DNA of 55,311 bases from a bacterium. Lineage in GTDB: Bacteria > UBP4 > UBA4092 > JAOAEQ01. The notes under the pieces were generated by a model. It had not been told where the DNA came from. It did not search any database and saw nothing but the letters and a program-made list of their open reading frames with translations. Position numbers and translations under genes: made by a program. Below, piece after piece: positions 7,020 through 53,574 of this stretch; within the stretch, counting starts at the first letter, position 1; every line of letters starts with the position of its first letter. Where the stretch lies: NCBI GenBank assembly GCA_041946755.1, contig JBHGBB010000001.1, forward strand, positions 1 to 55,311, read 5' to 3'.

Positions 7020-7598
7020 ATGAAAAACTATTCTTGGTTTAGCGCAATAGCAGTTTTAACCATACTCGCCTTCTTTCTTTCAATTACTTCGATTTGTGCT
7101 GAAGATAAATCTGCAAGTATAACTAATACCAAATCAAAACTAGCAGTAGTCGATTTCACTGTATTTGGTTCGGGAATTGATAAAGATTTAGGAAAAGCCG
7201 TGGCTGAACTAATGCGCAGTTGTTTTGTTGATACCGGAAAATATATTGTCATCGACAAAAATACGATGGATAAAACCATCTTGGAAAAAAGAATCACGGT
7301 TACCGAACAAACCGGAATCGAATTGGGTAAGTTATATAATGCTGATTTTGTGGTGGATGGTAGTATTCTTAAAATCGGACCGTCATACATCATGACTGGA
7401 AAACTAGCTGATGTTAAATCCGGAGAAGTGCTCAGTGGAAAAAATATTTCCGGAAAAGGGGACGATCAACTACCCGATATGGCAAAACAACTGGTCACCC
7501 AACTGATTAGCACCGAAAACACCTATACGGCAAAAACTACCGTCTCGATTATTTCAACTGTTACGGTTACCACCACTATCATCGAAATCAACAAATAA
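7020..7598 (+). CDS. secreted protein with CsgG/LpoB-like fold signature (function unknown)
   Basis: Signal peptide MKNYSWFSAIAVLTILAFFLSITSICA. KLAVVDFTVFG...LGKAVAELMRSCFVDTGKYIVIDKNTMDKILEK...GKLYNADFVVDGSILKIG...MTGKLADVKSGEVL resembles the CsgG/LpoB/FlgO-type periplasmic domain pattern. Confidence 0.4.
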   Translation: MKNYSWFSAIAVLTILAFFLSITSICAEDKSASITNTKSKLAVVDFTVFGSGIDKDLGKAVAELMRSCFVDTGKYIVIDKNTMDKTILEKRITVTEQTGIELGKLYNADFVVDGSILKIGPSYIMTGKLADVKSGEVLSGKNISGKGDDQLPDMAKQLVTQLISTENTYTAKTTVSIISTVTVTTTIIEINK

Positions 7599-7608
7599 TT
7601 TGTTATCT

Positions 7609-8802
7609 ATGGATACTCAACAAATAAAAGAATTGGCGGCAAAATATATTATGAACACCTACGGCATCAGAGATATCGCTCTGGTCCGAGGACAAGGAGT
7701 AAAGGTTTGGGATGCGGAAGGACAAGAATACCTTGATTTCGTTGGCGGAATTGCGGTCAATCTGCTTGGACATTGTCATCCAACGGTAGTAGAAGCTATT
7801 AATCAGCAGGCACAAACCTTGATTCATGTTTCTAATCTCTATTGTATCGAACCGCAGGTAAAACTGGCGGAATTACTCTGCCGGATTTCGTTCGCCGAAA
7901 AATGTTTTTTCTGTAATAGCGGTGCGGAAGCCAATGAAGCGGCAATCAAACTTGCCCGGAAATATGCGAAATTAAATATCGCTCCGGATAAATATGAGAT
8001 TATAACTATGCTCAATTCGTTTCATGGTCGTACCTTAGCAGCAATTACTGCTACCGGGCAGCCGAAGTACCAGCATGGATTTGAACCTTTAGTTCCGGGA
8101 TTTGTTTATGCGACTTTTAACGATTTAGCGAGCGTTAAAGAGAAAATCAATCAACACACCTGTGCGATTATGGTTGAACCGATTCAAGGAGAAAGCGGGG
8201 TCCATCCATCGACTCCGGAATTTCTATCCGGTCTCCGCCAATTATGCACTGAGCATAACTTACTATTAATTTATGACGAAGTCCAATGCGGATTGGGTAG
8301 AGTCGGAAAAATGTTTGGGTATGAACTTTATGGCATTCCGCCGGATATTATGACGTTATCAAAAGGATTAGGAGGCGGAGTCCCGATTGGTGCGACCCTG
8401 GCTACTGATAAAATTGCAGCCGCATTCTCACCGGGAAACCATGCATCAACGTTTGGCGGCAATCCATTAGCCAGCGCTGCAGCGATCGCTGCATTACAAA
8501 CGATTCTGGATCAGAAACTGGCCGAGAATGCTACTAAACAAGGAGCCTATTTCTATCAACAACTACTGGACTTAAAAAAGAAATATGATTTTATTACCGA
8601 TGTACGGGGTAAAGGGCTACTCCTCGGGCTCCAGTTAGATCGGGAAGGAAAACCGTTTGTCGTTAAGTGTGCTGAAAAAGGATTATTGATTAACTGCGCG
8701 GCAGAAAAAGTATTGCGGTTTCTCCCGCCATTAATAATCAATCAACAACATATCGATGAAGCGATATCGATTCTAGACCAAGTCTTTGCGGAGGTTAAGT
8801 AA
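7609..8802 (+). CDS. argD: acetylornithine aminotransferase
   Basis: Class III aminotransferase motifs: FCNSGAEANEAAIKLARKY, LIYDEVQCGLGRVGKMFGYE, SKGLGGG. ATG 7609 preferred over TTG 7600. Confidence 0.88.
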   Translation: MDTQQIKELAAKYIMNTYGIRDIALVRGQGVKVWDAEGQEYLDFVGGIAVNLLGHCHPTVVEAINQQAQTLIHVSNLYCIEPQVKLAELLCRISFAEKCFFCNSGAEANEAAIKLARKYAKLNIAPDKYEIITMLNSFHGRTLAAITATGQPKYQHGFEPLVPGFVYATFNDLASVKEKINQHTCAIMVEPIQGESGVHPSTPEFLSGLRQLCTEHNLLLIYDEVQCGLGRVGKMFGYELYGIPPDIMTLSKGLGGGVPIGATLATDKIAAAFSPGNHASTFGGNPLASAAAIAALQTILDQKLAENATKQGAYFYQQLLDLKKKYDFITDVRGKGLLLGLQLDREGKPFVVKCAEKGLLINCAAEKVLRFLPPLIINQQHIDEAISILDQVFAEVK

Positions 8803-9828: not shown

Positions 9829-10521
9829 ATGTCTAATAAAACTCCTAGAAATCCAACGATTGTTGTTGACGGTAAAACCTACTTGCGGATTCCGGTAAAA
9901 ACCCATATTATTACTGATAAAGATAATATCACTGAAGTGGTTGCTAAATATACTTCCGGGCAGTTACAGCCGGGCGATATAGTAGTGATGAGCGAAAGTG
10001 TGGTTGCTATTACCCAAGGTCGGGCAATCCCAATCGATCAGATTCATCCGGGATTGGTCGCTCGATTTTTATGGCGGTTCGTGCGGAAAGTATCGTATGG
10101 TATCGGACTGCGGAGTCCGGAAAGTATGCAGTGTGCGGTAGATGAGGTTGGTCGAATCAGAATCTTGTTTGCGGCATTTGTTGGCATGTTAGGGAAATTA
10201 GTCGGCCGTCGCGGTGATTTCTATCGTATTGCCGGGATGCAAGCGGCAACAATTGATGCAGCGTTTACCACTCCGATCGAACCTTTTCATCATTGTGTTA
10301 TTAAAGGACCGAAAGACCCGGATAAAGTTACTCAGACCATTAAAGATACCGTTGGGGTTGAAAGTGCGATCGTCGATGTGAATGATATTGGCGGTTCCTG
10401 GGCACTCGGCGCTTCCGATGGAGTCGATAAACGGTTAGTCGAAAAAATCATGAAAGATAATCCACTCGGCCAATCGGATGAACAAACCCCGATTGGAATT
10501 ATCCGAAGGATAAACAGTTAA
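9829..10521 (+). CDS. F420-0:gamma-glutamyl ligase (CofE)-like domain protein
   Basis: PVKTHIITDKDNITEVVAKY...PGDIVVMSESVVAITQGRA resembles the N-terminal pattern of the F420_ligase family. Recognised by eye only. Confidence 0.5.
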   Translation: MSNKTPRNPTIVVDGKTYLRIPVKTHIITDKDNITEVVAKYTSGQLQPGDIVVMSESVVAITQGRAIPIDQIHPGLVARFLWRFVRKVSYGIGLRSPESMQCAVDEVGRIRILFAAFVGMLGKLVGRRGDFYRIAGMQAATIDAAFTTPIEPFHHCVIKGPKDPDKVTQTIKDTVGVESAIVDVNDIGGSWALGASDGVDKRLVEKIMKDNPLGQSDEQTPIGIIRRINS

Positions 10522-10548
10522 ATGGTTAAATAGTTAAATAGTTAAATA
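10517..10548. repeat. tandem octamer GTTAAAT(A/G) x4
   Basis: gttaaatg gttaaata gttaaata gttaaata. The first unit overlaps the stop codon of the CofE-like gene. Confidence 0.8.
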
Positions 10549-16589: not shown

Positions 16590-16719
16590 CATAGGAGTTT
16601 AAGTTTGGGATTTTGGATTTAAGTAACCTTTCTACTGACACCTGTCTATCGGTTTTGCTAACTTCTGAATTCTAGCTTCTGACTTCTGGTTTCTTTCCCT
16701 CGCATCTCACACCTTTTCA

Positions 16720-21443: not shown

Positions 21444-22289
21444 TTATTTCTTAATTTGTTTTCTTTGAGTTATCGGAGGCAGATAATTTTCTCCGGTTAC
21501 TACGCTCTTACCGGTTTTCTGTTCCAGTTCAATTCGCGCTTTTTTAGCGATAGTGCCGCCTTTTTTCCCCGCGTCGGTATTTTCTGACATACCGGTAGCC
21601 TCGACACTTTCAGCAATCTGGCGGGTAGACAATTCCGCTAACGCAGTGAAAATTAATTCCGCTTCACTCATATGGTCTCGAAGATTCTGGGTTTTGAGTC
21701 CTTTCATATCCTTATGCTGTTTAACCGAAACCCCACTCCATTCCTGATGAATGATATTGGTTAGAATCGCATATTCCTCTTCCCCTTGAATCGCATGCTC
21801 TTTCCAATAATCGGTAAGTTTATTCCGGGTTTCCTGACCCATCATCCGCTGCTGAATCCATTTATCGCTTCTGCCATGCTGTTGCCAATATAATCGAGCG
21901 CGGTCGAGAGACCGGGCGGGATCGCTCATATCCTGGATGCGTTCATATCCTACTTTGGCTAACCAGAGTTTGATCGGTTCAGCTTTCGGACTGGGTACTG
22001 ATTGGATGAGACGTAATAGCGTTTCGGGATTGGCAGCATCAGTTACCCGCATTTTCCCATCTTCAGCCATCATTTTCAACTGGTGACAATTTGTCACCGT
22101 TTGACTGCCTTCCTTTTTAAGTCGTTCTTTTAACTTATTCCAATATTTCCGCGCAGTTTGATAATCCGGCTGCTGAATCAAAGCGGCGATTATATCCACT
22201 ACTGAAAAATACCACTGCTCTGATTTCTCGTCATATACTCGACGAATTTTATAACCTTCAAAGACTGCTAATGCTCGGTTATCATTCAT
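21444..22289 (-). CDS. Bro-N domain protein with DinD-like C-terminal region (prophage antirepressor-like)
   Basis: The N-terminus FEGYKIRRVYDEKSEQWYFSVVDIIAAL fits Bro-N. The C-terminal LRDHMSEAELIFTALAELSTRQIA resembles E. coli DinD (ILDHMGSTELAANLFRATQTEE). Confidence 0.65.
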   Translation of the reverse strand: MNDNRALAVFEGYKIRRVYDEKSEQWYFSVVDIIAALIQQPDYQTARKYWNKLKERLKKEGSQTVTNCHQLKMMAEDGKMRVTDAANPETLLRLIQSVPSPKAEPIKLWLAKVGYERIQDMSDPARSLDRARLYWQQHGRSDKWIQQRMMGQETRNKLTDYWKEHAIQGEEEYAILTNIIHQEWSGVSVKQHKDMKGLKTQNLRDHMSEAELIFTALAELSTRQIAESVEATGMSENTDAGKKGGTIAKKARIELEQKTGKSVVTGENYLPPITQRKQIKK

Positions 22290-22319
22290 ATTCGCCTCGA
22301 TTAAGAAGTAGTAGTTTCA

Positions 22320-22378
22320 GTCGATTACAATTTGTAACCGACTCAATTCACTAATACATTATACTATAAATTATTATA
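22320..22378 (-). promoter_or_regulatory. duplicated TAGTATAAT -10 boxes plus a palindromic operator-like site upstream of the Bro-N gene
   Basis: On the minus strand: TAGTATAAT twice (TATAAT at 22378-22373 and 22363-22358), followed by GTCGGTTACAA-A-TTGTAATCGAC (22342-20), 31 nt upstream of the ATG. Confidence 0.35.
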
Positions 22379-22404
22379 CTATGGAATAGCTGAATATAAG
22401 ATTT

Positions 22405-22439
22405 CCACGAAAGCACGAAAGATAAAAGACACGAAAGCC
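22405..22439. repeat. CACGAAA-array element, left arm
   Basis: CCACGAAAGCACGAAAGATAAAAGACACGAAAGCC. The inverse arm is at 22835-22867, on the other side of ORF 22472-22786. Confidence 0.8.
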
Positions 22440-22471
22440 AAGAATATCCAAAACCATTGAATTATATTTGG

Positions 22472-22786
22472 TTATTTAAGTCTTGCCCCGCAATGATTGC
22501 AATAGCTATTAATCCATGTTTGACATATTACAGGTATATTCTCTACATATAAGGTTACATAGAGACTTTTAGAACAATTCGGGCATTTTAACTTAAATAG
22601 ACCAAATCCTATATATAAATTAAACACTGCATACCCAAGCATAAAATAATCTAAGAGATTGTTAAATAGGTAGGAAACTACTAGGAAGTAGGGGATACCC
22701 CCTATTAAAACAGCAATGGTTTTTAGCCAATGTTTCCGAATCTTGGGACGCAACTGATTAAATTGGTCTCGGCAATCTTTTTCCAT
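22472..22786 (-). CDS. small membrane protein with C-terminal zinc ribbon (hypothetical)
   Basis: 104 aa with two hydrophobic helices (TIAVLIGGIPYFLVVSYLF, FMLGYAVFNLYIGFGLF), then CPNC-x29-CNHC. Confidence 0.5.
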   Translation of the reverse strand: MEKDCRDQFNQLRPKIRKHWLKTIAVLIGGIPYFLVVSYLFNNLLDYFMLGYAVFNLYIGFGLFKLKCPNCSKSLYVTLYVENIPVICQTWINSYCNHCGARLK

Positions 22787-22834
22787 TTTAGGTATACTTT
22801 ACCATAAAACCATGAATGAATTAAATGATGGTTC

Positions 22835-22867
22835 TTTTTGTGGTTTACATATTTCGTGGTTTCGTCT
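22835..22867. repeat. CACGAAA-array element, right (inverse) arm
   Basis: CTTTTGTGGTTTACATATTTCGTGGTTTCGTC. Confidence 0.75.
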
Positions 22868-22886
22868 GCCAGACCATTATGGTGTC

Positions 22887-22906
22887 ATTCCCGCGAAGGC
22901 GGGAAT
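22887..22906. repeat. short GC-rich palindrome ATTCCCGC-GAAG-GCGGGAAT
   Basis: Perfect 8-bp arms and a 4-nt loop. Confidence 0.8.
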
Positions 22907-22931
22907 CCAGTTTTCGAGTCTTGAGCCGATC

Positions 22932-23069
22932 AAAGCAAGTTTGCTATTAGCAAACTTGATTTATAGACACCTCTTTTAAACCAGAAAAAGCAAGTTCGCC
23001 TTAGACGAACTTGCTTTTTTATTGAGTGCTAAATCCTACATATATCCCTGAATTGGCTAAAGTTAAGAT
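22932..23069. repeat. 138-bp two-hairpin terminator module, copy B
   Basis: Same length as copy A. By manual alignment it has about 7 substitutions outside the second hairpin. The inner stem of that hairpin is replaced by AAAAAGCAAGTTCG-CCTTAGA-CGAACTTGCTTTTT (22985-23020), which is still perfectly paired. Confidence 0.9.
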
Positions 23070-23154
23070 ATATTATTGATGATTTTCCGACTAGCGCCTT
23101 TATTTCAGTTGGCAATTATTGTCTACAGTTCAACCTCTTTTTCGGGATTTATTA

Positions 23155-23227
23155 GTGACATTTTGTCACCGGTGCAAGTCCGGCTTCGGGAGTATGTTCT
23201 AAAATGGAACATGCTAAATTTTTCTTT
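23155..23227 (+). ncRNA. candidate small structured RNA or tRNA 3'-half-like relic (three hairpins plus U-tract)
   Basis: GTGACA-TTT-TGTCAC; CCGG-TGCAAGT-CCGG followed by CTTCGGG (compare the tRNA-Leu 3' end GGGG-TTCAAAT-CCCC-G-CTTCGGC); AGTATGTTC-TAAAATG-GAACATGCT followed by AAATTTTTCTTT. Confidence 0.3.
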
Positions 23228-23363
23228 AATTAATAAGAATTATAAAAAAATACAAACTGGTTTTGATTTTTTAATATTAAGAAGAGAATCTCTTTACGGA
23301 TAATACTAGAGTTGTATATAACTTGAATTAATGAAGATATATCAACCAATATTCGCCCGCATT

Positions 23364-25070
23364 TTAGGCAATTCCTGATTTCAGGGCATTCTTCAATGTA
23401 TCAACAAATACTTGATTGCGATAGAGACGTTTTGGTTTGAAGTTACCCTTTGACTGTTCAATATTAATAATAGTCCAAATACGATCAAGTTCAGCATTTG
23501 TGATAGTCTTATGGCTAATTCCAATAAGGACATCTCGGAAATAATCAGGTGTTCCTGAGACAATAGAGACCCATATAAAAGCAAAAAGACATCGATAATC
23601 AGTAGCAAATTTTTTTGATTGACTCCATGCAATACGCTTTGTGACTAAAGAATGCTCCATATGCTTAACAATATTGAGAACCGCTAGATAGATTCGGATG
23701 TCCATATGTGTGTCAAATAGTAGGTTATATTCTTTGTCGATACGCATGAACTTTGTTTTCATTTTAGCTGCTCGTGCTGGATTTTTTAACACAAGTGCCA
23801 TTATGCAACTAGCAAGATAAGAAGGAGAAATTATTCGATGCGTCGGGCGTCCTTGATTCTTGTGATAATTCTTACGTCTGTCGTAAAACCAATTGTCTCT
23901 AATTAAAATCTCTTCGATATCTCTCTGAATCTTTTCTGTTGCTCTAAGTGATGATAGTTCGACGCCAGTTTGATAATTGGTCGCCTTAATAATTCGATCT
24001 CGGACTTCGGGGTTTTGTGTAACAATTATCTTCACTAGCACTGCGCGATCATCATTATCATTAGGATGACTAATAAAGCGCCTATAGATAGTTTCCGTTG
24101 TCTGAAGACCATTAACAATCTGAATATTCTCAAGACTGATCTCTTTACCAGCAACGTTAGCCGCTGTTGCAATAATCGTAACACCGTTGTTCAACCACCA
24201 GAAATCACATTGATCAATTCGATTGGCATTAGCTAACGTCTGTTCGATATCTTCGTTTACCGGAACAGTACCAAGGTAGTCACGAACATTGGATTCAAAT
24301 AGATATGTGCGAAGAGCACCTTGGTCATCAGTGATAAACTTATGATAGTCAGGTAGAGTTGTCAGAATAATATAGTTGGTCTTGGCACGTGAAACATAGT
24401 TTTCAATAAAGGTTAACCGTAGTGTTCGGACACGCTGCTTGCGTGATAAATTTAGTAGTTCAGTAGCCCCAATAAACTGAAAATGGGTAACGCAATCACT
24501 AAAGAGTTCGTGCACTTGCTCTTCGATCAATCTAGCACGACCAATCACATTATCCGCAATTGAATTAGCATCACCTCTCGATACGTAAATAAATGTGAAA
24601 TGTAACGAGGGCTGACGAGCGGATAGTTCTCTGTATGCATCACAAAATAGCTGTCTTTGTTCAATCAAATCGTCATTGTATTCAGATGAAAACGAATCTG
24701 GCTTGCGTGAGAGATCAAATAATTCTGGTAGTGAAGCAAAGAGATTATTGAGTGGTACTTGCCGAAATGTAGTCTCATGTTTGCAAGTTATTATGATTAC
24801 TTCAACACTTGGGTGTTTGCGAACCATATCTTCTGTTGGCACTTCGGAGAGTGCTAGCCCGTCGAGGAAAACATAAAAACCATCTATCCCGCCATCGTCG
24901 CTTCCGTCTACCCAACCCTGTTCAATCTCGTCGTAGGACACGTCATGGTCTTTAAGCAGATTTTCGAAAGCGAACAGTTCAAATACCTCACTGATATTGG
25001 TAAGTTCTGGATATTCCGGTTTCTTTTTTTCTAAGAGTGCATCAAGAAGAATCAAATCATTCTTTGCCAT
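23364..25070 (-). CDS. AIPR family abortive-infection (phage resistance) protein
   Basis: 568 aa. The N-terminal GWVDGSDDGGIDGFYVF and the central FWWLNNGVTIIA...IVNGLQTT are hallmark AIPR (PF10592-like) motifs, recognised by eye. Confidence 0.75.
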   Translation of the reverse strand: MAKNDLILLDALLEKKKPEYPELTNISEVFELFAFENLLKDHDVSYDEIEQGWVDGSDDGGIDGFYVFLDGLALSEVPTEDMVRKHPSVEVIIITCKHETTFRQVPLNNLFASLPELFDLSRKPDSFSSEYNDDLIEQRQLFCDAYRELSARQPSLHFTFIYVSRGDANSIADNVIGRARLIEEQVHELFSDCVTHFQFIGATELLNLSRKQRVRTLRLTFIENYVSRAKTNYIILTTLPDYHKFITDDQGALRTYLFESNVRDYLGTVPVNEDIEQTLANANRIDQCDFWWLNNGVTIIATAANVAGKEISLENIQIVNGLQTTETIYRRFISHPNDNDDRAVLVKIIVTQNPEVRDRIIKATNYQTGVELSSLRATEKIQRDIEEILIRDNWFYDRRKNYHKNQGRPTHRIISPSYLASCIMALVLKNPARAAKMKTKFMRIDKEYNLLFDTHMDIRIYLAVLNIVKHMEHSLVTKRIAWSQSKKFATDYRCLFAFIWVSIVSGTPDYFRDVLIGISHKTITNAELDRIWTIINIEQSKGNFKPKRLYRNQVFVDTLKNALKSGIA

Positions 25071-25489: not shown

Positions 25490-26035
25490 ATGAAAAGGGA
25501 GAAAACCACTGAGTTACCGTATGTAACGTTAAGTATCCCGGTATCGAAGTTTATTGAACTAATCCAGAACCGGTTTCAGGATAATCTCAAGCAGTTGAAT
25601 CTTATTCCGGGACAAGAGCAACAGTTAGAATCAGCGTTAGAAAAAGCGGTTAATAGTATTCTGGTAGATAAGTTTGCGGTTGATGGAACTGTCGAATTAG
25701 TTCAGTTCCCGTTAGGGTCGATGGCCGCGAGTGGGAAATTCTCTGATCCGGATGCCGGTAATATCGTTTATGTTCCGGGTACCGGTTCCCATAAACCCTA
25801 TATCCGGAAATGGGTTATTCCCCCGAATATTAATTCCGATAAACAACAAGAACATCGAACCCGGTTTAAACTGGTTACCCAACAATGGAACCTAGAAACC
25901 CCTGAAATTAAATCGGAATGGGAATTAGCGGCGGAAAAAGTACCGGTATATTCCGGGCAGACGCTGTATATTAAGAGATGGTTTGAGGTGGGGAAAGAAT
26001 CTGGTAATTATCCGGGAATCGGATTTCAACCATAG
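25490..26035 (+). CDS. hypothetical protein (181 aa, no recognisable domain)
   Basis: AAGGAG RBS 7 nt upstream of the ATG; soluble, no TM segments; divergent from the AIPR gene. Confidence 0.5.
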   Translation: MKREKTTELPYVTLSIPVSKFIELIQNRFQDNLKQLNLIPGQEQQLESALEKAVNSILVDKFAVDGTVELVQFPLGSMAASGKFSDPDAGNIVYVPGTGSHKPYIRKWVIPPNINSDKQQEHRTRFKLVTQQWNLETPEIKSEWELAAEKVPVYSGQTLYIKRWFEVGKESGNYPGIGFQP

Positions 26036-26109
26036 AAAAGCTAACCGCAGAGGTCGCTGAGTATTATCGCAAAGCACGCAGAGAAAATATTGATGGTTCG
26101 AGACTGTCT

Positions 26110-26142
26110 AAAAAGCAGATTATCTATTAGATAATCTGCTTT
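26110..26142. terminator. hairpin terminator (U-tract on the minus strand)
   Basis: AAAAAGCAGATTATC-TATTA-GATAATCTGCTTT. It is related to the second hairpin of module A. Confidence 0.55.
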
Positions 26143-26294
26143 ACCTCAATAAAATCAATGGGATATAAAACCGAATGAATAGCCACTATCTTTAGATAGT
26201 GGACTATAGTATTGAGAAAAATGATGGACTTTAGTCTAGAATTTATAGCTATATTCTGGGTTAAAACCCTTCGGTTTTATTACCTTAATTCCCC

Positions 26295-26393
26295 GAGTTA
26301 AAACTCGGGGCTATTCATTGATCCGTCGGGTTAAAACTCGGGGCTATTCATTGATCCGTCGGATTAAAATTCGGCGCTATTCATCGATAATCT
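26295..26393. repeat. tandem repeat, 3 x 33 bp
   Basis: GAGTTAAAACTCGGGGCTATTCATTGATCCGTC (26295-26327) / GGGTTAAAACTCGGGGCTATTCATTGATCCGTC (26328-26360) / GGATTAAAATTCGGCGCTATTCATCGATAATCT (26361-26393). An inverted partial copy AAAACCGAATGAATAGCC sits at 26167-26184. Confidence 0.9.
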
Positions 26394-27690: not shown

Positions 27691-27704
27691 AGATAAAAAG
27701 ATTT

Positions 27705-27799
27705 CCACGAAACCACGAAATTTTTAAAGCACGAAATAATAGAACTAAAACTAATTTAGGTTTTTTTTCGTGTTTTCTAACTTTCGTGTTTTCGTGGTA
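27705..27799. repeat. CACGAAA-array palindromic element (complete)
   Basis: CCACGAAACCACGAAA..AAAGCACGAAA - loop - TTTTCGTGTTTTCTAACTTTCGTGTTTTCGTGGTA. It ends 2 nt from the stop codon at 27802-27804. Confidence 0.9.
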
Positions 27800-27801
27800 G
27801 G

Positions 27802-28221
27802 TTACTTTATAATAAAATTCTCGGATTTGAAATGGCTATAATACCTTCCATTTTGTGCCGTGAACTTGAGCACACAATAATCCGGGTCGGTTACTCCCTT
27901 CGGATAATAGAGTTCATCGCCCGGTTTCCAAATCATTTTTTTGGTCTTACTATCTTTCAGGACTTTCATCGTCCCTTTCAGCATCGCCCCTCGATAGAAT
28001 CGGGGATCATAGAAATAGATACTTGATTTCGGATTCTTGAGATACTGGTTCACCCGCATTGAAGAGGTATTAGTCGTAAAATAGAACTGTTTGATCCCAA
28101 TCCGTTTCCGGGGTGGTAGCATCGCTTTAACGTTCGGGAACCCGGTTTCATCTACTGAGCTGATTATCGATACCTTAGCATTATCGATCAGATTCCCGAT
28201 CGTTTTGATTATATCTCGCAT
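27802..28221 (-). CDS. pyridoxamine 5'-phosphate oxidase-like FMN-binding protein
   Basis: 139 aa. GFPNVKAML......FYFTTNTSSMRVNQYLKNPKSSIYFYD...GAMLKGTMKVL fits the split-barrel general-stress-26-like pattern. Confidence 0.6.
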   Translation of the reverse strand: MRDIIKTIGNLIDNAKVSIISSVDETGFPNVKAMLPPRKRIGIKQFYFTTNTSSMRVNQYLKNPKSSIYFYDPRFYRGAMLKGTMKVLKDSKTKKMIWKPGDELYYPKGVTDPDYCVLKFTAQNGRYYSHFKSENFIIK

Positions 28222-28275
28222 ATAATTTCGCCTCTTATATATCGGTTAACTCGGTATCATTTATCTATAAAACAT

Positions 28276-28369
28276 TACCACGAAAGCACGAAAGGTAGAA
28301 AGCACTAAATAATCGACATACTACTCATTTAATTTTATTTCGTGGGTTCCAGTTTTCGTGTCTTCGTAG
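28276..28369. repeat. CACGAAA-array palindromic element (complete)
   Basis: TACCACGAAAGCACGAAAGGTAGAAAGCAC - loop - TTTCGTGGGTTCCAGTTTTCGTGTCTTCGTAG. It abuts the stop codon at 28370-28372. Confidence 0.9.
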
Positions 28370-28825
28370 TTAATTGAGTAGCTGGGATGCTACCTGGATT
28401 CTAGTTTTATATTCATTAAATATTTTATCTCCAAGTCTTTTTCCAATTAGTAGTGGAATATCTGGATTTTGTTTAAATCGTATTTTATAGAACTCAAATA
28501 TGAACATATCTTTCGTTTTTTCAATACTATGTATATCAAACCAAGGGATAAAAAGAGGTGGATGCGCAAACCTATATAGTGGGAAAACTGAGAAATATAT
28601 CCCTTCTTCATTGACTCCAATATTACAACCACCACAATGCACCATAAAACGCATTCCGAGACTTTTCATATAATATTTCTTACCGATAAATTTCCCGCGG
28701 AACCGGTAATTTTGGGCTAAAGCCCACCATCCGCTGAGTAATGAAAGAACCATTGAAATTAATAACCAAAATCCAATAAATATCGGAAAGAAATATGCGG
28801 GTAGTAAGTCTGGCTGATTCTCCAT
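28370..28825 (-). CDS. hypothetical membrane protein (151 aa)
   Basis: N-terminal hydrophobic hairpin (YFFPIFIGFWLLISMVLSLLSGWWAL); no recognisable domain. Confidence 0.45.
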   Translation of the reverse strand: MENQPDLLPAYFFPIFIGFWLLISMVLSLLSGWWALAQNYRFRGKFIGKKYYMKSLGMRFMVHCGGCNIGVNEEGIYFSVFPLYRFAHPPLFIPWFDIHSIEKTKDMFIFEFYKIRFKQNPDIPLLIGKRLGDKIFNEYKTRIQVASQLLN

Positions 28826-28839
28826 AGCTGAATTTGTAT

Positions 28840-28880
28840 GGTTTCTTTTCGTGTTTTCTATCTTTCGTGTTTTCGTGGTA
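28840..28880. repeat. CACGAAA-array element, half copy overlapping a CDS 3' end
   Basis: GGTTTCTTTTCGTGTTTTCTATCTTTCGTGTTTTCGTGGTA. The last residues (..LPRKHER*) of the 28858-29634 methyltransferase are encoded by it. Confidence 0.85.
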
Positions 28881-29634
28881 AAGCATACGGTTTAATGCAT
28901 CTAATGGTCGCCATATCAGAATCCGGTTTAACTTTCTTGTCGGATAACCAATCGAAAGCTTTAACACTTTTAAAACCCGCCTGATGTAGGAACTCGGCGA
29001 TTTCATCTATAGTATAAAACCGGAGTTTACCCAGGTCCTCTTCCGCGCCGACCAGAGCACCATTAACATATTTCTCGATAATCAATAGCCGGGATTGGAT
29101 ATGGGTCTCCGAATCATATTCGGTGAGATACCTTTTGGTATAAATCAGGGTATCATTGCATTGTTTCCAATCGCCTTGCCATCCGGTATCCGGTTTCCTG
29201 ATTTTGTTACTTAGATGGAGGATATCGAACATAAACGCAGCGCCGGGAAGTAAATGATGGTACACATTAGTAAACGTCTGCACCATTTCGTCATTCGTAA
29301 TGACAAAACTGAGCGTTCCATCCGGAATAAAAACGAAACTTAATTTATAGTGCAGTTTGAAGGTTTGTATCGATTGCTTGGTTAGCGCGGGTTTAAGATG
29401 CAATTTCCGGCATTTTGTTCGGCATCTATTGAGCATATCTTCCGAGGTATCGATGCCAATAATTTTTATTTTCTTTCTTAATAACGGAATTAATATTCTA
29501 CCGGTTCCGCAACCCATCTCAAGTATAGTTCCTTGAAGATGCTGCATCTGGTTAAGCCAAAATGATAATTCTCTTTCTGTAATATCCGGATATGCTAAAT
29601 CATAATATTCTGATAAGATTTTACCGTATCGCAT
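28858..29634 (-). CDS. class I SAM-dependent methyltransferase
   Basis: Motif I ILEMGCGTGRI; 258 aa. Confidence 0.75.
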   Translation of the reverse strand: MRYGKILSEYYDLAYPDITERELSFWLNQMQHLQGTILEMGCGTGRILIPLLRKKIKIIGIDTSEDMLNRCRTKCRKLHLKPALTKQSIQTFKLHYKLSFVFIPDGTLSFVITNDEMVQTFTNVYHHLLPGAAFMFDILHLSNKIRKPDTGWQGDWKQCNDTLIYTKRYLTEYDSETHIQSRLLIIEKYVNGALVGAEEDLGKLRFYTIDEIAEFLHQAGFKSVKAFDWLSDKKVKPDSDMATIRCIKPYALPRKHER

Positions 29635-30103
29635 GGTGGCTCCTACTCATCTCGATTTCTTTAAATCCTTTATCGTTCATATAGCTGAAACCGGTAGCAA
29701 CAAACCCCAGATTTGCATAAGTCCGAATCGCTGGAAGATTATCAGCCACCACCGTCAGCTTATATACTTCGCAACCGGCAATATCCATGATCGCTGATAC
29801 TAGCCGGCGGCCGATACTTTTCCCGCGATGCGGTGGATCGACCCAAACCGCAAAGATTTTACCGAAATCCGGGGTACGAACGCAACCGGTTATGCCAATC
29901 GGGTTATCTTTATCAAAAGCTAGAACCAGGTATAACTCATCCGATTCTGCAGCCTTTTTCGTCTCCTCTTGCCATCGGGTATCGCTATACTCTTTAACCT
30001 GTTCATAGGTTTGCCCGAATTGGTTCCCATTTTGCAATAGTGCGGCTAATCGCATCGATTTAAATATTTCCCAGTCTTGAGCTTTAATTCGCCTGATTTC
30101 CAT
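29621..30103 (-). CDS. GNAT family N-acetyltransferase
   Basis: Acetyl-CoA site VWVDPPHRGKSIGRRLV; 160 aa. It overlaps the downstream methyltransferase start by 14 nt. Confidence 0.75.
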   Translation of the reverse strand: MEIRRIKAQDWEIFKSMRLAALLQNGNQFGQTYEQVKEYSDTRWQEETKKAAESDELYLVLAFDKDNPIGITGCVRTPDFGKIFAVWVDPPHRGKSIGRRLVSAIMDIAGCEVYKLTVVADNLPAIRTYANLGFVATGFSYMNDKGFKEIEMSRSHHAIR

Positions 30104-30240
30104 AGGTACCTTGCGGAACGTTAATTAAGTAATCTTAATTAGTATCCTTTGTTGTTTTAGTGATTCAATGAAAAAAGGTTGATTTATTCTAGCAAGTTTG
30201 GCAGGTGAATGACAATGTAGATTGAATATTATTAAAAGAT

Positions 30241-30312
30241 TACCACAAAGGCACGAAATAAAATTAGGTAAGATCTCTTTTCATATTTTCGTTCTTTCGT
30301 GTCTTCGTGGTA
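30241..30312. repeat. CACGAAA-array palindromic element (complete)
   Basis: TACCACAAAGGCACGAAATAAAA - loop - TTTTCGTTCTTTCGTGTCTTCGTGGTA. It ends 6 nt from the stop codon at 30319-30321. Confidence 0.9.
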
Positions 30313-30318
30313 AAGGAG

Positions 30319-30849
30319 TTACATAGCATCTTTTTCCAGCGACTTCTGGAAATAAACCACATCGATAACCCGGCCGAATTTCTCGCCTACCCGTTTAAAA
30401 TACCCGCATTCTTGATATCCCAAATTCCGAAACAATTTAAGACTCGGTTCGTTCTCCCCGGAAATAGACGCGATAATGATCTTGAATCCATTCTTCTTCG
30501 CTACCTGTTCCAGAAACGGTATCGCCTGTTTCCCTAATCCTTGATGGGTATACTCCGGTTTAAGGTATATCCCGATTTCTACCGTCCGATCATAGGCAAC
30601 CAAATTCTTATATTGAGTCAGGAAACAGAATCCAGCGAGCTCGTTCCTATAATAAATCAGATATGCTTTATATTTGAAATGATTCAGATAGATAAATCCC
30701 CGCAGTTTATCCATCGGAATCGGTTCTAAATGAAACGTGGCAGTAGAAGTTAGAATATAGTAATTATAGATATCCAGAACTACCGATAAATCTTTTTCTT
30801 GTATATCTTTCAATACTATCTCTTCCATATCAATCTTTCTTATAACCAT
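30319..30849 (-). CDS. GNAT family N-acetyltransferase (phosphinothricin-acetyltransferase-like)
   Basis: IYLKPEYTHQGLGKQAIPFLEQVAKKNGFKIIIASI pattern; 176 aa. Confidence 0.7.
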   Translation of the reverse strand: MVIRKIDMEEIVLKDIQEKDLSVVLDIYNYYILTSTATFHLEPIPMDKLRGFIYLNHFKYKAYLIYYRNELAGFCFLTQYKNLVAYDRTVEIGIYLKPEYTHQGLGKQAIPFLEQVAKKNGFKIIIASISGENEPSLKLFRNLGYQECGYFKRVGEKFGRVIDVVYFQKSLEKDAM

Positions 30850-37225: not shown

Positions 37226-37309
37226 GCTCTTCTCCTTTTTATAATCGATTAATAAGTATATAATGAGAATAAATCATACTTTTTTCTTCGCTGATTATGC
37301 AAACTAATC

Positions 37310-37395
37310 TACCACGAAAACGCGAAAGATATAAAGCTTGGAATATGCTTATATAATTTAGCTATCATCTCGATTTTGTTTTTCACGTTTTCGTC
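37310..37395. repeat. CACGAAA-array palindromic element (degenerate)
   Basis: TACCACGAAAACGCGAAAG - loop - TTTTTCACGTTTTCGTC. Confidence 0.7.
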
Positions 37396-40371: not shown

Positions 40372-40500
40372 AAAATTCGAATACCAAAATCCGAAATCCG
40401 AAACAATAATACAAAAGGAAAATCAATTAAAACTTTAGTTTGTATTATTGTTGTTTCTCTTTTTACTTCGAATTTCGATATTCGATATTCGAATTTGCTT
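40372..40500. repeat. long imperfect hairpin built from CGAA(A/T)ATCGAA-type tandem units
   Basis: AAATTCGAATACCAAAATCCGAAATCCGAAACAATAATACAAA ... TTTGTATTATTGTTGTTTC ... CTTCGAATTTCGATATTCGATATTCGAATTT. A half copy is at 51036-51070. Confidence 0.8.
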
Positions 40501-41455: not shown

Positions 41456-41573
41456 GTCCTAAGTCTTAAGTCCAAAAACGAAAAATTATAAACTTCAAAC
41501 TGAAGTCCTAAGTCCGAAGTCTTAAGTCTAGAAACTTTTCCACCTTAGGATTTAGGACTAAAGCCTTAGGACT
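41456..41573. repeat. imperfect inverted tandem-nonamer hairpin (AGTCCTAAG family)
   Basis: AGTCCTAAGTCTTAAGTCC...GAAGTCCTAAGTCCGAAGTCTTAAGTC - loop - CCTTAGGATTTAGGACTAAAGCCTTAGGACT. Confidence 0.85.
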
Positions 41574-51035: not shown

Positions 51036-51070
51036 TGTTTCGAATTTCGATATTCGATATTCGGATTTAT
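51036..51070. repeat. half copy of the CGAATATCGAA-type element
   Basis: TTTGTTTCGAATTTCGATATTCGATATTCGGATTT, just upstream of ATG 51077. Confidence 0.75.
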
Positions 51071-51076
51071 CATATT

Positions 51077-52240
51077 ATGCATATTTGCTTATTAACTCGG
51101 GCGTTACCTTCTCATCAATTCGGGGGACTAGAAACCCATACCCTAGCTTTAGCACAAGGGCTAGTCAGCCGCGGGCATAAGGTAACGATTATCTCTTCTG
51201 CCAAAGCGGTTACCGCTGAGTTTCGTTCTCTGTATTCGCAAATTAAGGTTGTTGAACTCCCAAAAACATTACCTGGGAAATATAGTTTATCTTTTTTCCG
51301 GGAATCAGTGAAATTGATTGATGAATTGGATAAACAAGAATCGTTCGATATCATTCATTCTCAGGGATTCGCGGCATTCGGTTATATGTTTTTTAAAGTT
51401 AAACCCTTAGTGGTTACCATCCATGGCACGTTAACATCGGAGACTATGTTATTTCCCAAGAAATTCTCGATTCCCAACCTCTGGAAATATCGGAAACGGT
51501 TAGGAATCAGCCCGTTATACCGGCAGTTATTATCTCGGGCGGATACCATTCTAGTTGATAGCCATTTCTCTGAACAGCTCTTATTACAAGAGAATGAAAC
51601 GCTTAATAAGAAACTAGCAGTAGTATATTTAGGAATCGATACCAATCACTTTATCTCTTCCGATAAAACCAAAGCGAAACCGCATTTTGGAATTGCCTCG
51701 GATTTCCTGATTTTAGCTTTCGGTCGGATTACGCATAGTAAAGGGTATCATATCCTTATCGAAGCATTGCGCAAGATTAATAATATTCCTTATCAGGTTA
51801 TCATCGCTGGAGATGGACCATATCGCAGTCAGTTAGAAAAGATGGTTAAACAGTATCATCTAGATCGCGTTACGTTTTTGGGGAAAGTAGCAGAATCTGA
51901 AGTTCCCGGTTTATATAGGGCGGCAGATGTTTTCGTTCATCCGGATTTAACCGCACCGGCGTTTGGATTAGTTGCGGCTGAAGCGTTATCGTGCGGCACC
52001 CCGGTGATCGCTTCTCATACCGGTGCGTTACCGGAAGTGGTAACCCCGGAAGTAGGGATAACCATACCACCGGGAGACCCGGAAACATTAGCCAGCGCTA
52101 TGCTCGAATTATATCTAAATAGTAAGCGAAGAAACCAGATGGGTATTGCTGCTCGGCAGCGAGCGGAATCGTTATTTACTTTAGAACGTATGGCAGCAGA
52201 AACAGAATCAGCATATCGAAAAACAGTAGCCAGTAGATAG
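51077..52240 (+). CDS. glycosyltransferase family 4
   Basis: MHICLLTRALPSHQFGGLETH; AAEALSCGTPVIASHTGALPEVV. ATG 51077 chosen because the track start at 51035 is encoded by the repeat. Confidence 0.85.
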   Translation: MHICLLTRALPSHQFGGLETHTLALAQGLVSRGHKVTIISSAKAVTAEFRSLYSQIKVVELPKTLPGKYSLSFFRESVKLIDELDKQESFDIIHSQGFAAFGYMFFKVKPLVVTIHGTLTSETMLFPKKFSIPNLWKYRKRLGISPLYRQLLSRADTILVDSHFSEQLLLQENETLNKKLAVVYLGIDTNHFISSDKTKAKPHFGIASDFLILAFGRITHSKGYHILIEALRKINNIPYQVIIAGDGPYRSQLEKMVKQYHLDRVTFLGKVAESEVPGLYRAADVFVHPDLTAPAFGLVAAEALSCGTPVIASHTGALPEVVTPEVGITIPPGDPETLASAMLELYLNSKRRNQMGIAARQRAESLFTLERMAAETESAYRKTVASR

Positions 52241-52305
52241 TAGTTGGAATCTAGGGTAAAAACTAGTTTTTCTCTATCTACTAGATGCTAGCTACAATTT
52301 GTACA

Positions 52306-53574
52306 ATGAATATTCTATATCTAACCTATAACAGCGTGATGAGATTAGGGATTTTGCGGTCGCAGGTAGAGACGTTATTAAAACTGCTTACTGCAAAATA
52401 TCCGAATGAGTTTAGGTTTACGCTGATTACGGTTGAACGATGGAAGGATTATAAAAATAAGCAGTTAAAATCTTCATTCCGGCAAGAGATGGCAGCAGCC
52501 GGGATTCGGGTTATTATTGTTCCAAAGCTTTTACCGGAGTTTCTTAGAATAGAAAGCGCTCAAACCTCGTTCTGGCAGCGGGTATATTCGAACTTAACCT
52601 TTCTTCTTGATTTTATACTCTTATTAAAAGTTACCGGCTATGTTATTCTGCGATACCAGATTCGGAGTATTCATACCCGGAGCTATGTTCCGGGAATAAT
52701 CGGTTTATTTTATAAACGATTGTTTAGAAAGAAATATATTTTCGACCCACGTGGCTTGATCCCGGAAGAACTCTTATTAGCGCAAGGCTGGTCGAAAACC
52801 AGCCGGAAATACCGAGTTTGGAAACGCATCGAACGATGGCTATTGAAAGGTGCGGATACCGTTTTCGTTCTCTCTCAACCATTTGCCAAACATTATCAGG
52901 AAATCATACCAACACTTCAACCGATTATCACTCCCTGTTGTGTCGATACCGATCAATTCAAGTATGATACTGATAAACGAATAGAATCAAGGAAAAAGTT
53001 CGGGGTTGAAAATAATCTGGTTGTAGTATTCACGGTCGGCGCGTTTGTCCCCTATCAGCAGCTTGACGGTGGAATAAACTTATTTCAGCAGATATTAACT
53101 CTTCGCCCCGATGCTAAACTATTCCTATTAACTCCCGATAAAGAGCAAATCGAAAAGTATATAGCAGGTAATTCCGCAATCCGCAATCCGCAATCTGCAA
53201 TTACTATTTATTCACCTGCATTTCAGGAGATGCCGGAATATTTGATGGTGAGCGATATCGCGATATTAGTTCGGGTGCCATCGGTAATCAGCGAAGTTGC
53301 ATCTCCGGTAAAATTCGCTGAATATTTAGCCTGCGGAGTACCGGTAATCGCATATCCGAATATCGGCGATACCCAACAGATTATTGAGCCAAATCAGGTG
53401 GGGATTATTATTGACCCGAAGAACGACAGTTATACCGAACAACAGTTACGCACACTACTTAACCAGTTTACCGACCGAGAAACACTATCACTCCGCTGCC
53501 GGGCTACGGCTATTGATCAACTTTCCTGGAATCACTATCTAGAAATATATTTCAAAATATATTCTCAAGTGTAA
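52306..53574 (+). CDS. glycosyltransferase (GT4-like)
   Basis: MNILYLTYNS... and the C-terminal KFAEYLACGVPVIAYPNIGD. It contains the heptamer repeat at 53173-53200. Confidence 0.7.
   Translation: MNILYLTYNSVMRLGILRSQVETLLKLLTAKYPNEFRFTLITVERWKDYKNKQLKSSFRQEMAAAGIRVIIVPKLLPEFLRIESAQTSFWQRVYSNLTFLLDFILLLKVTGYVILRYQIRSIHTRSYVPGIIGLFYKRLFRKKYIFDPRGLIPEELLLAQGWSKTSRKYRVWKRIERWLLKGADTVFVLSQPFAKHYQEIIPTLQPIITPCCVDTDQFKYDTDKRIESRKKFGVENNLVVVFTVGAFVPYQQLDGGINLFQQILTLRPDAKLFLLTPDKEQIEKYIAGNSAIRNPQSAITIYSPAFQEMPEYLMVSDIAILVRVPSVISEVASPVKFAEYLACGVPVIAYPNIGDTQQIIEPNQVGIIIDPKNDSYTEQQLRTLLNQFTDRETLSLRCRATAIDQLSWNHYLEIYFKIYSQV
53173..53200 (+). repeat. heptanucleotide tandem repeat TCCGCAA x3 plus TCTGCAA inside a CDS
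   Basis: tccgcaa tccgcaa tccgcaa tctgcaa, translated as ..NSAIRNPQSAI.. Confidence 0.9.

Follow-up and report, generated by a model that had tools for sequence, protein, structure and literature searches.

Hairpin elements of tandem CACGAAA words at gene ends of a UBP4 bacterium: probable remnants of a dispersed cassette carrying a GxxExxY nuclease gene

We analysed positions 1 to 55,311 of contig JBHGBB010000001.1 (GenBank assembly GCA_041946755.1) from a bacterium of the GTDB lineage UBP4. This whole stretch of 55,311 nucleotides is referred to as the window, and the genome to which it belongs (3.9 Mb in 362 contigs, 95% complete) as G000. The subject is a set of palindromic elements, composed of tandem CACGAAA words, that punctuate a string of small genes on the minus strand. 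We consider it likely that these loci are gene-less or decayed copies of a dispersed hairpin cassette, the complete form of which carries the gene of a GxxExxY nuclease.

A sequence-only reading of the window had listed seven palindromic loci. All seven exist: by reading the sequence and by a profile search with an arm model, each is found at or within a few bases of the positions given earlier. The window contains 25 copies of CACGAAA; dinucleotide-preserving shuffles give 8.0 +/- 2.6 (maximum 15). The arms had been described as 2-3 tandem units; instead they are composed of four 8-nt words, CACGAAAN CACGAAAN nnnnAAAN CACGAAA, of which the third is degenerate. They are capped by (A/T)ACC...GGT(A/T), and the pattern in full reads (A/T)ACC-ACGAAA N CACGAAA N(9) CACGAAA. 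Copies in the window terminate in TACCAC or TTTCCAC on one side and in GTGGTA or GTGGAAA on the other. The list of separate elements needs some revision, even though the loci are real: the pair at 22405 and 22835 forms the two arms of one element enclosing a 104-aa open reading frame (ORF), 28847-28886 is a lone arm only, and the copies at 30234-30317 and 37308-37395 are degenerate (nhmmer E 0.01-5). The second arm of the last copy ends in TTTTCGTCTG, like the arm at 22867.

At ten variable positions the two arms were compared in 51 canonical palindromes taken from many genomes. Compensatory pairing was expected at these positions, and this idea was dropped when the opposite was seen: the arms pair less than shuffled partners do, with 109 Watson-Crick pairs (against 131.8 +/- 8.5) and 154 mismatches (against 129.8 +/- 7.6, reached by none of 1000 shuffles). 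The predicted hairpin has three 7-bp helices with mismatched spacers between them. The arms pair less than chance at the spacer positions, and it is the word itself that is conserved. In these alignments the words are conserved and the spacers are not, which speaks for recognition of a specific sequence, or else for perfect long palindromes being selected against, rather than for a generic stem.

The complete form is represented in G000 by a single CACGAAA copy, located on contig C49. Here a gene at 7649-8017 (TIGR04256 'GxxExxY protein', 143.9 bits) is bracketed by one CACGAAA 5' arm and three tandem 3' arms (about 77 nt apart, 7446-7640). The gene in the loop encodes a PD-(D/E)XK protein of about 120 aa (PF13366/TIGR04256), in which the catalytic D...ExK and the GxxExxY glutamate are intact. 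Its AlphaFold model (pLDDT 93.6) most resembles Cas4, MGME1 and lambda-type exonucleases, at a query-normalised template modelling (TM) score of only ~0.5; among solved structures no relative was matched by sequence. Cas4, MGME1 and lambda-type exonucleases act on single strands and DNA ends. In total, five PF13366 (PDDEXK_3) genes are present in G000. The other four are found within the same AACC...GGTT caps and arm design with other words (CACAGAG, CGCAAAG, CACCAAG), each wedged between a stop codon and the following start; one of these four is flanked by what we take to be pstB (ending in ...GRFG) and, presumably, phoU.

Complete copies with CACGAAA arms are also present in four other genomes (L179, L180, L181 and L182). 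The closest relatives of the C49 protein, in Desulfobacterota and Planctomycetota, bear CACGAAA arms and the distant paralogues bear other words. Among the foreign loci listed (at least 118, as described below), two of the four GxxExxY genes adjoin CACGAAA arms. The two proteins concerned are 53-58% identical to the C49 protein, against 39-48% for all other pairs, including the G000 paralogues. As a follow-up set, five array-bearing genomes were searched for GxxExxY copies. CACGAAA arms are found at four of the five copies that are at least 52% identical to C49 (52-62%); the five copies at 38-44% identity have other words, one of them with a partial resemblance. In none of the five genomes without arrays (G001-G004 and G032) was a C49-type gene found, the sole copy of G001 being 47% identical. 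Overall, these comparisons reveal a trend for protein subfamily and word to travel together.

One GxxExxY cassette occupies the junction between a histidine kinase and a response regulator gene in both G000 (C2:21449-21796) and the sister genus G001 (L193, G001:C6:9562-9915). Its words are CACCAAG in G000, where the gene has an in-frame TGA, and CGCAGAG in G001. This might be either an old copy with a concerted change of its arms or the outcome of repeated insertion at one site.

In the window element with two distant arms, the 104-aa ORF occupies the place held by the GxxExxY gene in the complete cassette. Three homologues of this ORF elsewhere are without tandem-word arms, two of them having a simple GTTATGTG/CACATAAC inverted repeat. 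The 104-aa ORF and the 151-aa membrane-protein ORF were considered as a class of cargo, and this was dropped: their few homologues have no matching tandem-word arms on both sides. Next to the degenerate arm at 22867 a small hairpin, CATTCCCGCGAAGGCGGGAATC (22880-22908), is found; it has 15 copies in the genome, one of which lies beside another repeat on C315.

The arm-model search finds 60 arms in about 40 loci of G000, spread over more than 30 contigs and nearly all intergenic. Taken alone, the word is not frequent: 331 copies are present genome-wide, fewer than the median of 430 across the 105 distinct arrangements of its seven letters. G000 contains the 15-base core CCACGAAANCACGAAA 29 times, with no occurrence in the reversed control, and each of 40 other genomes, including the only family-mate of G000, contains it 0-1 times. 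The earlier statement that all elements lie in accessory DNA is valid within the window; elsewhere core genes are flanked as well, such as mutS on C302, where the start of the gene is marked by a palindrome and the stop by an arm. Six or seven of the ~40 loci are clustered within 15 kb, where ~0.15 would be expected. Among all G000 arms, the three window 5' arms at 27796, 28877 and 30309 resemble one another most, which suggests local spread.

Counting the elements genome-wide and mapping them relative to stop codons, as had been proposed, gives the following: in 11 of the arms the first word starts within 10 nt after a stop codon or overlaps it, and in three cases the terminal TAACC provides the TAA stop itself. 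Other arms of G000 end 3-15 nt ahead of a start codon. Most loci are located between co-directional genes, some between convergent genes and four between divergent ones.

Besides CACGAAA, many other tandem-word families are present in G000 (ATTTAAC, CGCAAAG, CGCAGAG, AAATCCG, TGCTAAA), several with 30-70 loci. Arrays of other words (GTTAAAT, AAATCCG, TTCGATA, TAAGTCT, CCGCAAT) also occur in the window, outside the CACGAAA cluster. On C89 (955-3832) a 5'-type and a 3'-type CACGAAA arm are inverted at 2.8 kb distance and might be either a large cassette or a pair of lone arms. Between them are a 380-aa ORF (putatively methyltransferase-like), a 178-aa ORF and a 247-aa ORF. Two further types of repeat were seen in G000: the palindrome GATTGGCAG(G/C)CTGCCAATC (38 copies, for instance on C302 and C46) and GTCATTGCGAG...GCGAAGCAATC hairpins (42 and 18 copies), one of which is nested in the loop of a CACGAAA element on C179.

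Outside G000, the arm was searched for as CACGAAA N CACGAAA N9 CACGAAA (21 specified bases), for which we estimate ~0.3 chance matches in 596 Gb. The pattern matches at least 118 loci in metagenome-assembled genomes. The matches listed include Desulfobacterota, Planctomycetota, Acidobacteriota, Nitrospirota, Ignavibacteria, Armatimonadota, Patescibacteria and one archaeon, and among them the foreign loci usually comprise just one palindrome, whose loop spans 12-100 nt and whose ends read ATCACGAAA...TTTCGTGAT. In Rfam no family matches the element, only chance matches to long hairpins being obtained far below threshold. Phages do not stand out as a vehicle of this family with its 8-nt period, viral matches being scarce: one match of the arm pattern in 2.9 million viral contigs, and four distant matches when GxxExxY was aligned against viral contigs.

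For 18 element loci a comparison was made with the sister genus G001, in which seven junctions could be matched on both sides. CACGAAA words are found at none of these seven orthologous junctions. On C58 the flanks align up to the element ends (…ATACCTT / TACCACG…CGTGGTA / ATGTTTATT…, with slashes marking the ends), and in G001 21 unrelated bases replace the 134-bp element. At the C179 junction G001 is shorter by 112 nt; the G001 spacers at C58 and C179 are both hairpin-free. At C354 the corresponding place in G001 is taken by a hairpin of other words, and on C302 a CACGAAA palindrome lies within the loop of an older palindrome of CGAATAT words that both genera have. As judged from the aligned junctions, these differences show turnover of elements since the genera split. 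The G001 orthologue of the LarA-like gene of the window is 76% identical and resides in another context, its neighbours mapping to other G000 contigs. With the methyltransferase of the window as query, no close relatives were found in metagenome contigs (best identity at most 38%).

A number of observations weigh against the proposed cassette and its link to the nuclease. One copy at 52% identity to C49 carries other words, and G043 is array-bearing and was searched for the gene, no C49-type copy being found. The sample relating protein to word is small, and two of its genomes were picked as the gene had already been seen there. At the junctions compared with G001 no transposition event, target-site duplication or clean empty site is seen, G001 having other sequence there. 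The TA/AA..TT bases at the flanks belong to the palindrome; the inverted repeats are clear and a direct duplication is indistinguishable. Finally, the same arm architecture brackets an unrelated family: G000 has 14 genes of PF05635 (23S rRNA intervening sequence (IVS) protein), most of which are bracketed by inverted arms of tandem words (TCAGAAG, AAGTACC, GGATTGC, AAATCCA and TTAAGAG, on contigs C345, C290, C187, C331, C361, C347 and others). Since this design also surrounds PF05635 genes, the arms may not be read by the protein they carry.

Under the proposed explanation, the cassette would consist of two inverted four-word arms with (A/T)ACC...GGT(A/T) caps around a loop that holds the GxxExxY gene. 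By analogy with two known pairs of enzyme and repeat (RAYT/REP and Ssn/NTS, discussed below), the words might be recognised as specific sequences, with the cognate nuclease as the most likely reader, working on hairpin DNA that is single-stranded or extruded, and the activity of this nuclease would drive or maintain the spread of the elements. The window cluster could then be the outcome of elements spreading locally into accessory DNA whose junctions tolerate them. A more far-reaching version is conceivable, though we hold it to be doubtful: each GxxExxY subfamily would be a site-specific nuclease reading its own 7-8-nt word. For the C49-type enzyme, the CACGAAA arrays would serve as dispersed targets and as mobile ends. 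Such a system would be a PD-(D/E)XK counterpart of RAYT/REP and Ssn/NTS, with a naturally diversified word specificity, and would move between phyla as a unit. In the literature on motif strings and GxxExxY we found no paper that ties such arrays to GxxExxY or that describes the arrays as a mobile family.

The identities of the genes between the elements (PNPOx-like, membrane protein, methyltransferase and two GNATs) are as noted from the sequence before (Table 1). A LarA-like gene is located downstream of the string, and AIPR and Bro-N/AbiJ-like genes are nearby. Contact with stop codons is likewise real, since elements touch or overlap the stops of the PNPOx-like, membrane-protein, methyltransferase and second GNAT genes. 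The complete palindrome fills the gap between the PNPOx-like stop (27802) and the LarA-like ATG (27690). Its neighbour overlaps the stop of the membrane-protein ORF, the PNPOx-like gene starting 47 nt downstream, and the degenerate palindrome of the string begins 1 nt past the stop of the second GNAT. At the methyltransferase, the lone arm encodes the last seven residues (LPRKHER of the tail YALPRKHER) together with the TAG stop, and the next ATG lies 21 nt beyond the end of the arm; homologues of this protein terminate one to nine residues past a conserved KP. The base composition of the region is unremarkable. For the region of the gene string, the four nearest genomes have no counterpart at the DNA level, as would fit accessory DNA tolerant of insertions.

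Table 1. Positions of the CACGAAA elements, neighbouring genes and other arrays in the window (E, E-value of the arm; fold, predicted RNA folding energy)
Feature	Position	Strand	Details
Gene-less complete palindrome (arm-loop-arm)	27695-27801	-	3+3 exact CACGAAA words, 29-nt loop; arm E 1e-8 and 8.5e-7; fold -30.6 kcal/mol, z -5.75; gene-sense end GTGGAAATCTTTTT
Gene-less palindrome (arm-loop-arm), one strong and one weak arm	28269-28372	-	Sequence reading and profile search; fold -27.6 kcal/mol, z -3.5
Lone arm	28847-28886	-	E 3.8e-8; gene sense TTACCACGAAAACACGAAAGATAGAAAACACGAAA
Degenerate palindrome (arm-loop-arm)	30234-30317	-	E 0.01 and 4.9; fold -22.5 kcal/mol, z -4.6
3' arm of ORF-bearing copy	22396-22436	-	E 4.5e-8; gene-sense end GTGGAAATCTTAT
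Degenerate 5' arm of the same element	22836-22867	-	E 1.2; sequence GGCAGACGAAACCACGAAATATGTAAACCACAAAAA
104-aa ORF	22472-22786	-	Two predicted membrane helices, C-terminal CxxC...CxxC zinc ribbon
Decayed palindrome	37308-37395	.	E 0.077; one arm recognisable
Co-directional string of small genes	27802-30849	-	Annotation of neighbours
PNPOx-like gene	27802-28221	-	Member of gene string
Membrane protein (151 aa), no assigned function	28370-28825	-	Member of gene string
Class I methyltransferase	28858-29634	-	Member of gene string
GNAT	29621-30103	-	Member of gene string
GNAT	30319-30849	-	Member of gene string
Other-word arrays	10517-10547, 16608-16689, 40387-40493, 41460-41558, 51038-51086, 52224-52308, 53173-53267		Tandem words

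Two other features were observed close to the repeat cluster. The Bro-N/AbiJ-like gene and the AIPR gene, the latter of abortive-infection type, are adjacent at 21444-25070 and resemble a small defence island. Furthermore, the ORF at 25490-26035, which has no Pfam match, and its downstream region (25659-26320) are found with 69-84% DNA identity at five or more places in G001, which suggests that the region 25490-26320 might be a multi-copy element.

Several features of the elements would suit ordinary intrinsic terminators or 3'-end stabilisers without any mobile or selfish history. The hairpins are stable (-22 to -36 kcal/mol, z -3.5 to -6.3), with a U-rich tail 4-7 nt beyond the stem, so that the hairpin plus tail noted earlier is indeed recovered by folding. 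In gene sense, the window elements range from -22.5 to -30.6 kcal/mol (z -3.5 to -5.8), the other strand being about equal. The conserved gene-sense tail GTGG(A/T)AATCTT is genuine too: in 10 of 11 independent G000 loci this variant is found on the downstream side of the gene that precedes it. In addition, a promoter-like site (30215-30186, the best of the region) follows the copy after the GNAT gene at 30319. Nonetheless, we regard this explanation as unlikely. The identical 7-nt words recur in many phyla, for which a terminator role cannot account. At 27695-27801 and 28847-28886 only 5-21 nt separate the end of the copy from the following start codon; a promoter would not fit there, and transcription must pass through both copies. 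Elements are also found in divergent promoter gaps, as lone arms before start codons and bracketing ORFs; the elements are not called in a simple scan for consensus terminators, and no polarity of the tail was seen in the other genomes tested, by a cruder test. As a secondary effect of inserted hairpins, partial termination or stabilisation of 3' ends is plausible and would probably occur, much as for REP/BIME repeats.

Slightly less probable still is that the arrays are bound by a nucleoid protein or by a global DNA-binding regulator, as has been proposed for Geobacter metallireducens. The same four-word design, paired on opposite strands, was annotated there as putative regulator sites (PMC2700814), and such a role would agree with words that are conserved between variable spacers in arms that do not covary. 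However, the elements overlap stop codons and 3' ends of genes, their neighbours form no common, regulon-like set, and there are more word families than global regulators would need. The bracketing of GxxExxY and PF05635 genes by arrays also argues against a regulator.

The sequence-only reading had compared the layout to an integron-like cassette array, in which each small gene with its palindrome would be a mobile cassette and the palindromes would serve as recombination sites. It is true that the genes are tightly packed and co-directional, four gaps in a row containing a palindrome, that their types are typical of cassettes and that a few copies at other places have GTTRRRY-like cores (GTTAGAT, GTTAAGC) at their ends. 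We nevertheless find this very improbable and have abandoned it. A search for IntI returns only two tyrosine recombinases in G000, on other contigs (C114 and C330), scoring 85.9 and 66.3 bits against a cut-off of 265 (TIGR02249/NF011946), and no recombinase gene is present at 18.9-40.3 kb of the window. The window copies are without RYYYAAC...GTTRRRY cores, and the complete copy has arms on both sides of its gene. Moreover, about 33 further loci are scattered singly by core genes, copies are found on more than 30 contigs and in divergent promoter gaps, and in other phyla isolated single palindromes are seen instead of arrays.

Repetitive extragenic palindromic (REP) or REPIN elements mobilised by a REP-associated tyrosine transposase (RAYT) or an IS200-type Y1 transposase are just as remote an explanation, since the three Y1 proteins encoded by G000, which with the dispersed intergenic palindromes would speak for it, are of IS200/IS605 type, fall below the RAYT cut-off and are flanked by hairpins of their own (GGGGCTATTCA type and others), and no CACGAAA arm is present on their contigs. 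The earlier likening to REP repeats and bacterial interspersed mosaic elements (BIMEs) thus stands in part: there is a dispersed family of intergenic palindromes with a linked enzyme gene, and that gene encodes GxxExxY instead of RAYT, IS200 or IntI.

REP-like hairpins ending in GGGGCTATTCA/GTGGCTATTCA do occur in the window (26183-26202, 26291-26310 and ~26340). The same type flanks an IS200-like Y1 gene on C209, and GGGGCTATTCA has 17 exact and 51 looser copies in G000. These hairpins are probably a separate REP/Y1 system.

The dispersed nuclease cassette would have several implications. If GxxExxY does read the words, this would constitute a third, independent partnership of nuclease and repeat and would provide small nucleases with sequence specificity. 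The hairpins, and with them dozens of sister families of other words, occupy many gene junctions of G000 and rewrite gene ends. For annotation, such arrays would best be treated neither as operators nor as attC sites or plain terminators. What this window contributes in particular is that the arms avoid pairing at the spacers and that the protein subfamily tends to go with the word.

The elements resemble a number of known systems, each to a different extent. Like integron attC sites, they are imperfect palindromes of ~60-140 bp directly after small co-directional genes, but there is no IntI, no R''/L''-L'/R' core and no integrase-adjacent array, and they are found genome-wide. They share with miniature inverted-repeat transposable elements (MITEs, for instance the Correia elements of Neisseria) that they are small, non-coding and multi-copy, have terminal inverted repeats and are located at gene ends. 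In contrast to MITEs, no target-site duplication was found, nor a parent insertion sequence with a known transposase; when copies with an ORF were inspected for such a parent, they held only the GxxExxY nuclease (C49) or the 104-aa ORF. ORF-bearing intervening sequences of 23S rRNA (S23p/PF05635) occur in Leptospira and Coxiella. There also a long stem brackets a small ORF, and the PF05635 genes of G000 are found in arms of the same design, though the elements described here reside between protein genes and not in rRNA.

Closer in design are the octa- and heptanucleotide arrays of classes 1-3 in Geobacter metallireducens, which were read by their authors as sites of global regulators (PMC2700814). 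These also have four tandem 8-nt words in sites paired on opposite strands at variable distance, in dozens of copies; their words differ (GTTGCTYN and others) and no link to GxxExxY was reported by the authors. With the REP/BIME and REPIN repeats and their RAYT proteins in Enterobacteria and Pseudomonas the elements have in common that imperfect palindromes are dispersed in gaps, often after stops and inside operons, that the gene of a linked enzyme is flanked by the repeat and that secondary effects on mRNA 3' ends are probable. The differences are that the enzyme here is a PD-(D/E)XK protein (GxxExxY) and not a Y1 HUH transposase, and that each arm has four tandem 8-nt words, the same across phyla. 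The last comparison is with Ssn, a GIY-YIG nuclease whose genes are framed by NTS/SRM repeats that Ssn cuts (PMC11893778). The fold (PD-(D/E)XK against GIY-YIG) and the repeat design are different, and cleavage of the repeat, which is known for Ssn, would be a prediction for GxxExxY. Nonetheless, in both cases a small nuclease gene is framed on both sides by a dispersed hairpin repeat, the association recurs across phyla and variants of the nuclease go with variants of the repeat.

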